From a virus (lineage: Duplodnaviria; Heunggongvirae; Uroviricota; Caudoviricetes), in the IMG/VR virus record IMGVR_UViG_2541047877_000006: a stretch of DNA of 53,577 nucleotides. One strand, written 5' to 3'. The position numbers and the translations under genes were made by a program. Within the stretch, counting starts at the first letter, position 1. Each line of letters starts with the position of its first letter. Positions 44,613-49,583 of the stretch are shown here, piece by piece. The notes beneath the pieces were generated by a model. That model was given only the letters and a program-made list of their open reading frames with translations, searched no databases and was not told the origin of the DNA.

Positions 44613-47600
44613 ATGAGTAGCGGCGGCGGCAAAGCCAAAACACCAACATTATTGAACGATAACCTGTATCACAAACAGTTTTATCGTGTTTTAGATATTC
44701 TCAGCGAAGGGCCGATATACGGTCCGGTAAACCAGAAAGCGCCATTGAATGACGTGATGCTTAATGACACTCCTGTTACTGACGCAAACGGGAATACATC
44801 AATTCCGGGGATTAGTATAGCCTGGCGCAACGGCACGGCTGACCAATCGCCGATTAATGGTTTTAACGCCATTGAGTCAACCGTTATTGTCAACGCAAAG
44901 GTAACTCACGACACACCAATAATCAGGACTGTTTCAGATCCAAACGTTACCCGCGTCAGGTTGAATCTTGGTGTTGATGCTCTCGTTCAGTCAGATGAAA
45001 AGGGCAATCAATATAATACATCCGTCATGTTGATGGTTGATGTTAAACCGTCATCATCTTCTACGTGGTCGCTGATTAAAGACATACACATTGGCCCTGG
45101 TAAACAAAGCGGTGAATACCTGGAAGCTCACATCATTAAAGCGCCGGATGAAAAACCGTTTGATATTCGCGTTCGTCGCATAACACCAGACAGCAACGGC
45201 GATCTATTGCGGAATGATACGCGGTGGAGTAGTTACAGCGAAATAATAGATGATAATCTGTCTTATCCTCATACCGCTGTAGCTGGCGCCGTAATTGACC
45301 ATGATCAGTATACTGATACGCCTACCCGCACCTATCACCTTCGCGGCCTGATTGTTGATGTGCCTGACAACTACAACCCTGAAACGCGCACATATTCAGG
45401 TTTATGGCTTGGTGGATTTAAAAAGGCGTATACCAATAACCCTGCATGGCTTTTCCGGTATCTGGTTAAAAACGAGCGCTTTGGACTTGCTCGACATGCT
45501 GGTTACATTGATGTTGATGATGGCGCTTTGTACGTGCTTTCTCAATACTGCGATCAGTTGGTTGATGATGGCTATGGTGGCCTTGAACCTCGCATGACGC
45601 TTAACGCTTACATTACGGAGCAAATGAGCGCCCGCGACCTACTGGATAACATCGCAGGTATGTTCCGTGGTATCGCGTTATGGGACGGACAACGTCTTAC
45701 CGTGATGATTGATGCGCCACAAGATCCAATCGCCACCATCACAAATGCAAACGTCGTTGATGGCGCGTTTACTCGTTCAAGTATCGCACGCGCAGAATGC
45801 TACAACGCCGTGATCGTATCCTGGACTGACCCTGAAAACGGCTGGGAGCAATCAAAAGAATATGTCGCAGATGATAAACTAATCGCCCGTGATGGTTATA
45901 ACGAAACCACGTTGGAGGCGTTCGGTTGCACTTCACGCGGGCAAGCGCACCGCGCTGGTAAATGGCTGATCGAAACAGCGAAACGCGAGCCGTCAAAATT
46001 CACATTTAAAATGGCCCGTGACGCCATTCACTTTACGCCGGGGGATATAATCGAGATCCTCGATAATAATCGCGCAGGCGCTCGTTTAGGCGGTCGCATC
46101 GTGGCGAACAATGGCAGAGCGATCACGGTCGACAAGGTTGATTCTGAATATATCGCGGCTGGCGACACCATCAGCTTACTTGATAGCGATGGTAAATTTA
46201 AAAAACACCAGATCATCGGAGTTAACGGGAACATTATCACCCTTGCAGCCGCCCCGGCGTGGATTCGTAACGGCACTGTTTTTGCTGTATCAACCAACGC
46301 AGCAAAACCCGTTTTATGTCGAATCACCAGTGTAGCAGAAACAGAAAATAACAGCGTATACACCATCGAGGCCGCACAGCATGATCCACATAAGCAGGCC
46401 GTAGTCGATAATGGCGCAATCTTCGAGATCAATAACGACACGCTTAATCACTTCCGCGTGCCGAACATTGAAAATCTGAAGGTGTTAAACGTTGGATCTG
46501 AAACGGTTCAATGTCGCGCAACATGGGAAACACAGACGACAACGCGTCGCCTGACCTTTGAGATTCGCGTGTATAACGCCGAAGGCGCTGTAGTTAAAAG
46601 CTACGAAACCACGAATTACAGTTATGATTTTTATGGCATTGATGCTGGCAACTACTCATTAGGCATTCGTGGCAGAAATGACACGGGCATGAAGGGTGCG
46701 GAAAGCATTGTCGATCTGGTTATTGGCGCACCAGCGGCCCCAGTTGGCGTTAATTGGGTTCCCGGTGTATTCCAGGCTACAGTTTACCCGATCAGCAGAA
46801 CAACGCTCACCACTGATACCAGTTACGAGTTTTATTACTCAGGTGAAACGCAGATCACTGATCCGGCATCAATAACCACTAAAGCACAATATACCGGGCG
46901 TGGTCATCAGTGGACGTTTGGCGGCATGAATACAGGTCACACATATTACGTTTATGTGCGCGCGCGTAACGCTTTTGGTGTGTCTGACTTTGTGGAAGCG
47001 TCAGGTAAGCCAACAGAAAACTTTGATGAAATTACCGATTACGTCACCAAAGACGTAATGAATTCCAAACAATTTAAAGAAATGGTTGGTGACATTAAAG
47101 ATCTAGGCGACCGCACTGATCTTATCGAAAGCGCTACGAATGACCTTAAAACTGCTACTGACAACCTCAAAGCTGCAACTGATAATCTGACCAACATAAC
47201 TGACGATTTAAGGACTGAAACTGACAAGCTAACCATAGAAACAGGATCAATAAAAGCTGATACTGATACGCTCAAAAAAGAAACGGAAGATCTTTATAAA
47301 AAAGTTAAGGAAAACGCCGATGATATTGGACAGCATGAGTCGAGAATCGACTCGCTGGAGGTGTCTAGCGAAAAAGTTGGCAGCGAACTGGCGCAAGCAA
47401 AAGCAAGTCTGCAAAACGCCTCACTTGCTCTTATTAATAACTCGCTTGCACAGACTAACACTCGCGTAACTCTTACCGCTCAGTACAAGAAAGGCAGGAC
47501 AGAGACGAAAGCGGAAATTGACCGCATTGACAACGTTATCGCTGAAGAGAAAAAAGCGACAGCGGAATCACTGGAAACCATCACGGCAGAAATGAATGTG

Positions 47601-49583: not shown

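Follow-up and report, generated by a model that had tools for sequence, protein, structure and literature searches.

Central tail fibre J of an Escherichia coli prophage and its probably modular, recombination-variable helical shaft

The tip attachment protein, or central tail fibre, J decides which bacteria a siphophage infects, and only now is it becoming understood how non-contractile tails open and breach the envelope. The J gene considered here occupies positions 44613–49583 on the + strand of a 53,577-nucleotide stretch of viral DNA (IMG/VR record IMGVR_UViG_2541047877_000006; this whole stretch is referred to below as the window), and its open reading frame (ORF) encodes 1656 amino acids (aa). 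As an annotation the gene is ordinary: RefSeq names its product 'phage tail tip fiber protein' (WP_042068459.1), which is a correct name for a tail-tip fibre gene. The same gene of 4971 nucleotides (nt) is present in four other E. coli strains at 99.9–100% identity. It probably encodes the central tail fibre of a temperate siphophage of the mEpimmI group that is integrated in E. coli, with a modular helical shaft that varies through recombination.

A coiled-coil shaft in a J-type fibre is already known, the phage group has been published and variable repeats in its J proteins are in print (PMC11893012). What is added in this study is a 36-aa repeat unit together with a two-head grammar of its arrays, a strict quantization of shaft lengths, an allelic series among clonal prophages and the independence of shaft length and receptor-binding domain.

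Domain layout and repeat architecture of J

Both ends of the protein resemble lambda J. Residues 1–852 (44613–47168, + strand) correspond to a hub with FNIII and Ig domains of the lambda J type, to which lambda J (PDB 8iyk) aligns with an E-value of 7.6e-187. The N-terminal hub, FNIII and Ig domains in Pfam (PF24801, PF13550, PF24421 and PF24489) all score above the cut-off, with FNIII-A_GpJ at residues 88–214, Phage-tail_3 at 335–492, Ig_J at 609–707 and Ig_J_second at 709–811. Towards the C-terminus, the Phage_Tail_Tip beta domain (PF09327; 48699–49112, + strand, residues 1363–1500) was identified by Pfam (E 2.9e-40) and by Foldseek, and it is followed by a beta-sandwich receptor-binding domain (49113–49580, + strand, residues 1501–1656) that AlphaFold2 models with a predicted local distance difference test score (pLDDT) of 72–91. 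Residues 832–1000 of lambda J pair with residues ∼1350–1528 of the window J, and among PDB entries Foldseek matches the tip and C-terminus best to the central tail fibres of lambda and A8 (8xck, 8xcj and 9wca; E 1.7e-8 to 5.5e-8). The NCBIfam 'exception' model lambda_TipJ (NF049904) gives 722.6 bits, under its cut-off of 1950 bits; judged from these comparisons, the window protein is a member of the J family and not lambda J itself. With 1656 aa against the 1132 aa of lambda J it is 524 aa longer, close to the excess of about 500 aa given in the first-pass annotation.

The ∼510 residues that separate the lambda-like hub from the tip and receptor-binding domain, also lambda-like, are predicted to be alpha-helical, and no Pfam model covers residues 853–1362. 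This shaft, encoded throughout on the + strand, begins with helix 1 (47067–47348, residues 819–912), a canonical heptad segment in the AlphaFold2 model that carries 'TDNLK' heptad repeats, followed by a predicted break (47349–47387, residues 913–925) where the model is not helical and the pLDDT falls to 38–43. Head A, AQAKASLQNASLALINNSLAQTNTRVTLTAQYKKGRTE, occupies 47391–47504 (residues 927–964) and leads into array A (47505–48044), which consists of a degenerate unit (residues 965–1000) and four 36-aa units (residues 1001–1144). Head B, DQAKASLQNASLALINNSMAQSKMSTVIEAKYRKGQTK, follows at 48069–48182 (residues 1153–1190) and leads into array B (48183–48506, residues 1191–1298), in which three 36-aa units were delimited with a hidden Markov model (HMM) of the unit and which the comparison of alleles identifies as the site of copy-number polymorphism. 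A conserved pre-tip segment (48507–48698, residues 1299–1362), recognized both in the AlphaFold2 model and by alignment to the shaft of the F2-pyocin fibre, completes the shaft; its helix is continuous with array B and extends to residue ∼1351.

The first-pass annotation had described units of ∼34–36 aa, and the repeat period can now be given as exactly 36 aa or 108 nt. The full units begin at residues 1001, 1037, 1073, 1109, 1191, 1227 and 1263 and the degenerate unit at residue 965; in array A the full units match the unit HMM with independent E-values of 1e-20 to 1e-23, and the DNA falls into families D1–D4 with 108-nt spacing. The repetition is far beyond chance, as the best off-diagonal Smith–Waterman self-score of residues 821–1370 is 667, compared with 111 ± 15 and a maximum of 140 in 30 shuffled sequences. 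The 108-nt period escaped Tandem Repeats Finder, as the units are only 44–69% identical at the DNA level; its output was confined to a 21-nt heptad repeat at 47143–47182, inside helix 1, and a trivial 7-nt repeat. On the opposite strand, an ORF of 234 aa (48071–48775, − strand) lies wholly inside the repeat arrays of J and would be a by-product of their Ala/Ser-rich codons, not a gene.

Each array is preceded by a head segment of ∼38 aa that starts with (A/D)QAKASLQNASLALINNS, at residues 927 and 1153. Within the heads, a 'AKASLQNASLALINNS' block recurs at residues 929 and 1155 (nt 47397 and 48075, a spacing of 678 nt), and its two copies share a 20-nt exact match at 47400/48078, in agreement with a duplicated block that had been placed at 47399 and 48078. 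The two head-led arrays thus bear out the earlier proposal of an internal segmental duplication, but not the idea that the duplication is recent. Head A (…AQTNTRVTLTAQYKKGR.E) differs in type from head B (…AQSKMSTVIEAKYRKGQTK); both paralogues are conserved across the family and occur together in 74 of 123 relatives. From this distribution the two-head duplication is judged to be ancestral to the phage group, and the identity of only 44–69% among the units likewise makes it an old one.

Among exact direct repeats in the 53.6-kb window, the longest is a perfect one of 43 bp in array B, with one copy in the unit starting at residue 1191 (48212–48254, + strand) and the other in the unit starting at residue 1227 (48320–48362, + strand); a 42-bp repeat listed earlier at 48213/48321 sits inside it. 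Outside this tract the two units are ∼48% identical in DNA sequence, and a perfect tract within units that are otherwise so diverged indicates recent conversion or crossover.

Length variation of the shaft and constancy of the receptor-binding domain

Alleles of other E. coli prophages show what this tract gives rise to. Relative to the window gene, J of strain GN04592 (1692 aa) has two point changes and a single additional 108-nt unit in array B, and J of LP-26-E1-261 (1728 aa) has one point change and two additional units of 108 nt in the same array, while the genes that flank J in both strains have the same protein accessions as in the near-identical prophage of strain CB7286. Each extra unit starts with the head of unit 1227 and passes through the 43-bp repeat into the tail of unit 1191, exactly as unequal crossover or slippage within that repeat would produce. 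The expectation that the repeats permit length variation by recombination is thus realized in nature. Almost identical prophages that differ by exactly zero, one or two shaft units form a natural allelic series, which makes two ideas testable, namely that fibre length influences adsorption through O-antigen or capsule, and that the arrays act as a fold switch of the pyocin type. A change in the opposite direction is seen in a relative of 1430 aa (P0001), which equals the window protein minus 226 aa through an in-register join of units 1001 and 1227, with head B lost and a receptor-binding domain identical to that of the window J.

The same rule holds across the family. Among 88 distinct relatives, the lengths of helix 1 (91, 98, 105, 112, 126 and 140 aa) are multiples of 7 apart in 87 cases; the distances from head A to head B (118, 154, 190, 226 and 334 aa) are all 10 mod 36 (68 of 68); and the distances from the last head to the tip (153, 225, 261, 297 and 333 aa) are 9 mod 36 in 85 of the 88. 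Since these lengths are quantized by 7 or 36 aa, the shaft changes length only in register-preserving steps. When each protein is written as a string of head segments (H) and 36-aa units (u), 19 architectures are found among ∼128 proteins, the commonest being HuuuHu with 46 sequences. The longest alleles were taken from E. coli and phage collections; a search with residues 821–1656 missed the protein's own full-length cluster and the J protein of mEp021.

The receptor-binding domain does not take part in this variation. The C-terminal 177 aa of J are 100% identical in proteins of 1430, 1527, 1656 and 1728 aa, and the 1692-aa allele carries the same domain because its differences from the window gene all lie upstream. 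One receptor-binding domain is therefore present on stalks of at least five lengths, and it follows from this identity that the remodelled part is the shaft, not the receptor-binding domain.

This result bears directly on the claim, made in the first-pass annotation, that the repeats are a recently remodelled receptor-binding module, in other words a fresh segmental duplication tied to a change in receptor specificity. The domain, which is ∼40% identical to HK97 J, does differ from those of all six characterized mEp phages (its identity to mEp013 J is ∼37%), there is no nucleotide match to the six beyond nt ∼4400 of the J gene, and the perfect 43-bp tract adds a sign of recent exchange. However, the domain lies outside the repeats and is unchanged across shaft lengths, and the two conserved head paralogues and the diverged units described above speak against a fresh duplication. 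Furthermore, a mosaic exchange that can be localized lies elsewhere: the J gene of E. coli GN05505 (2501–7471) has the same length as the window gene, with 74–93% identity over the first ∼550 codons, which encode the hub, and 99–100% identity over the shaft and receptor-binding domain, which indicates, from the sequence comparison, a recombination breakpoint in the hub part that is independent of the repeats. The claim is consequently considered very improbable.

Whether the variation in unit number is under selection at all needs to be considered separately. It would be selectively neutral if the shaft were a tolerant spacer without an adaptive role in host range, and several observations are compatible with this: an identical receptor-binding domain is carried on stalks that range from 'Huu' to 'HuuuuHuuuuu', the 19 architectures have no obvious correlation with other features, and sampling is thin, as no more than 35 of the 5426 complete E. 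coli genomes have a J match. On the other hand, the strict quantization by 7 and 36 aa shows purifying selection on the register at least, heads A and B are highly conserved, and a single architecture, HuuuHu, dominates. Full neutrality thus seems rather unlikely.

Predicted structure of the shaft and its possible function

The structure of J was predicted with AlphaFold2 as monomers, using family alignments of 40–44 sequences. Helices were obtained for residues 819–912, 926–1186 and 1191–1351, mostly with pLDDT values of 80–97, and they are separated by the low-confidence residues 913–925 and by a possible second break at residues ∼1187–1190; the shaft helices are followed by the beta strands of the tip domain and then by the beta-sandwich C-terminal domain. 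The helical units anticipated in the first-pass annotation are therefore recovered in the models. The hydrophobic period is 3.52 in helix 1, which is the heptad value, compared with 3.60 in the unit arrays, and 36 residues fill ten turns of a helix that has 3.6 residues in each. NCBIfam gives only weak matches to SMC coiled coils over residues 817–1173. A profile of the 36-aa unit matched 78 representative proteins among 1.84 billion, including a J homologue of 1922 aa with 14 matched stretches, a trimeric autotransporter with a YadA anchor and other fibre proteins. The shaft would be a trimeric coiled coil of extended geometry, by analogy with J homologues whose solved structures are trimeric. 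Fully extended, its ∼516 helical residues would measure ∼76 nm, or ∼5.3 nm per unit by calculation.

The following mechanism is proposed for the modular shaft. A heptad helix (residues 819–912) is followed by two arrays of 36-residue units, each with a head before it, and unequal homologous recombination or replication slippage between units would gain or lose whole units because the units are 108-nt direct repeats. Each such event would shift the length of the fibre by ∼5 nm while the hydrophobic core stays in register, and would leave the receptor-binding domain untouched. Shaft length may serve to reach through surface polysaccharide, to provide a docking site for side fibres or to store folding energy.

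Some points weigh against this picture. The AlphaFold2 models are of monomers only and their predicted template-modelling (pTM) scores are 0.33–0.37. In addition, a shaft of ∼76 nm is long beside the tails of the mEpimmI group, which measure ∼130 nm (PMC11893012), and may fold back at the breaks at residues 913–925 and ∼1187–1190; the same publication does not mention such an elongated fibre. Finally, the expanded alleles hold 108-nt copies in perfect tandem, the number of which can be wrong in short-read assemblies, and an assembly artefact in their exact copy number is possible. An artefact of this kind was also considered for the window allele and is unlikely there, as its longest perfect repeat is 43 bp and the gene recurs in the four other strains mentioned above.

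The possibility of a fold switch deserves attention in view of recent work on pyocins. In the central fibre of the F7 pyocin, a coiled coil of 163 residues just upstream of the tip converts into a beta-prism on contact with the cell, the strands of which carry the motif SxSxxMxxLxS in alternating orientation, and of 24 central fibres of siphophages, 21 are predicted to have a switch of a similar kind (He et al. 2026 preprint, PMC12874032). A switch of the F7 type in the window J would involve a metastable trimeric coiled coil that turns into a beta-prism on receptor binding, upon which the tail tip opens. It is conceivable, and is put forward tentatively, that the arrays, or at least array B with residues 1299–1351, are such a fold-switching element and that the number of units tunes the size or energy of the switch and not reach alone.

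Several features of the sequence are consistent with a fold switch. The last helix (residues 1191–1351) comprises 161 residues, lies in a position homologous to the pyocin switch and contains the polymorphic array B. The motif SxSxxMxxLxS has 31 matches in residues 853–1365, compared with 9.0 ± 2.7 and a maximum of 17 in 1000 shuffled sequences; the other 1143 residues of J contain ten, and helix 1 only one. In the family consensus unit TDASVSRLDQAIADETSARAEAISGVNASISTLDNK, small residues make up 100% at positions 3, 11, 13, 18, 20, 22 and 28 and hydrophobic residues 100% at positions 5, 8, 12, 23, 26 and 30, such that each unit holds one reverse motif (positions 3–13) and one forward motif (positions 18–28), and the i,i+4 pair E15/R19 resembles the salt bridges described for 'M' positions in the pyocin. 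However, the motif is loose and its matches are non-independent copies of one unit, and the AlphaFold2 monomers gave only helix. Furthermore, lambda and T5 are without this switch according to PMC12874032, which is a preprint with peer review pending, and the window shaft is three times as long as the switch region of the pyocin, so that most of it may not switch.

The stronger form of this idea, in which the 36-residue units are more than a spacer and recombination provides clonal prophages with a 'spring' tunable by copy number, is possible but doubtful. If it were true, the alleles with three, four and five units in array B would differ in reach and also in how large, or how energetic, the beta-prism formed after triggering is, and would offer a natural quantized series for studying how non-contractile tails power the penetration of the envelope.

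Genomic surroundings and comparison with known systems

Upstream of J, the tape measure gene (38051–40393) is followed by genes in the order of the lambda-type tail tip, namely L (ORF 42688–43392, annotated as minor tail protein L in related records), K (ORF 43299–44126, with NlpC/P60 and JAB domains) and I (ORF 44069–44599, annotated as a tail assembly protein). In the CB7286 prophage, reverse-strand accessory genes (1869–3946) lie between the tape measure and tail-tip genes, upstream of L; one encodes a ParE family toxin-like protein and another a fragment of a KilAC antirepressor. Far from J, an ORF of 310 aa (5265–6197, − strand) has three stretches of DUF4379 treble-clef zinc finger, a CapR homology domain and a MUG113 domain, and judging from these domains may be a prophage defence or accessory gene; the 34-bp exact repeat within it (5867/6056) is taken to mirror its repeated zinc-finger domains.

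Downstream, an IS4-like element of 1426 bp (49603–51028, + strand) begins 19 nt past the J stop codon. It is inserted in a bidirectional terminator hairpin, is bounded by a 12-bp target duplication, GGGCATAAGCCC, at 49591–49602 and 51029–51040, has 18-bp terminal inverted repeats and encodes a transposase of 448 aa with Nterm_IS4 and DDE_Tnp_1 domains, with ∼97% identity of the element to E. coli IS4 copies. Neither CB7286 nor any other of the related E. coli prophages and phages (seven examined) carries it, and a junction search found no complete RefSeq E. coli genome that spans the IS4/J junction. The insertion parts a small ORF (51061–51363, − strand) from the shared terminator in the window; this ORF, whose annotation in related E. 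coli prophages is a hypothetical protein of 81 aa (WP_000734009.1) and which has a signal-peptide-like N-terminus (MKKLIVACILSALSFGAFA), occupies the slot directly after J, where mEp021 has a putative lipoprotein gene. Beyond it lies a gene for a protein of 598 aa (51504–53300, + strand) that matches PHROG tail fibre families over residues 1–150 and contains a GTA_spike_fiber domain; by analogy with the side fibres of F-type pyocins, this protein could attach to the J shaft.

Among solved structures, lambda J (8iyk, 8xck and 8xcj) has the hub, the FNIII/Ig domains, the tip domain and the C-terminal receptor-binding fold in common with the window J. In lambda J, however, the second Ig domain leads almost directly into the tip domain, whereas the window J has ∼500 extra helical residues at this point.

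The closest structural analogue is the central fibre of F-type pyocins, which is homologous to J and has a long alpha-helical shaft of three strands that runs from hub to beta tip. In a phmmer search, residues 1204–1482 of J matched residues 911–1185 of the F2-pyocin central fibre (E 1.6e-29), the 'alpha-helical shaft' of which has been solved as a three-stranded coiled coil (PDB 25vf, PMC13455828). Short non-helical kinks in the pyocin shaft dock side fibres (PMC13455828), and the window shaft likewise has predicted breaks; the SxSxxMxxLxS motif is common to the F7 pyocin fibre and the window J. In contrast, the pyocin shaft is much shorter (a switch region of 163 residues), and regular 36-aa arrays have not been reported for pyocins. 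A pyocin is moreover a DNA-free bacteriocin of Pseudomonas, and for the window phage both the fold switch and the docking of side fibres would be drawn by analogy.

YadA-type trimeric autotransporters resemble the window J in design, not in whole-protein homology. One trimeric autotransporter adhesin with a YadA-like membrane anchor (P0124, 1834 aa) has 12 stretches that match the profile of the 36-aa unit. From the profile matches, the 36-aa repeat design seems to occur in bacterial trimeric stalks as well.

The nearest relatives are the mEpimmI phages, with which the window shares the genes neighbouring J (those of mEp021/mEp013-type phages), the L–K–I–J order and the layout of J as variable repeats, a conserved stretch and a variable terminus; the DNA of the J gene is 84–90% identical to that of mEp013, mEp515, mEp021, mEp010, mEp044 and mEp554 over 66–80% of the gene. 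The J proteins of this group differ in size, and their C-terminal region contains variable-length repeats (positions 950–1475), a part that is conserved and a terminus that is less so (Front Microbiol 2025, PMC11893012). According to the same study, J of mEp021 is a virion protein by mass spectrometry, and the receptors are LamB for mEp010, mEp013, mEp044 and mEp554 and OmpA for mEp021 and mEp515. The window J's receptor-binding domain is ∼37% identical to that of a LamB-using phage, mEp013, and has no nucleotide match to the domain of the OmpA-using mEp021 and mEp515. The 36-aa unit, the two heads, the quantized lengths and the clonal unit-number alleles are not part of the published description (PMC11893012). 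Written in these terms, the architecture is H-uuuu-H-uuu in the window J (1656 aa), H-uuu-H-u in mEp013 (1504 aa) and H-8u-H-5u in mEp021 (1727 aa).

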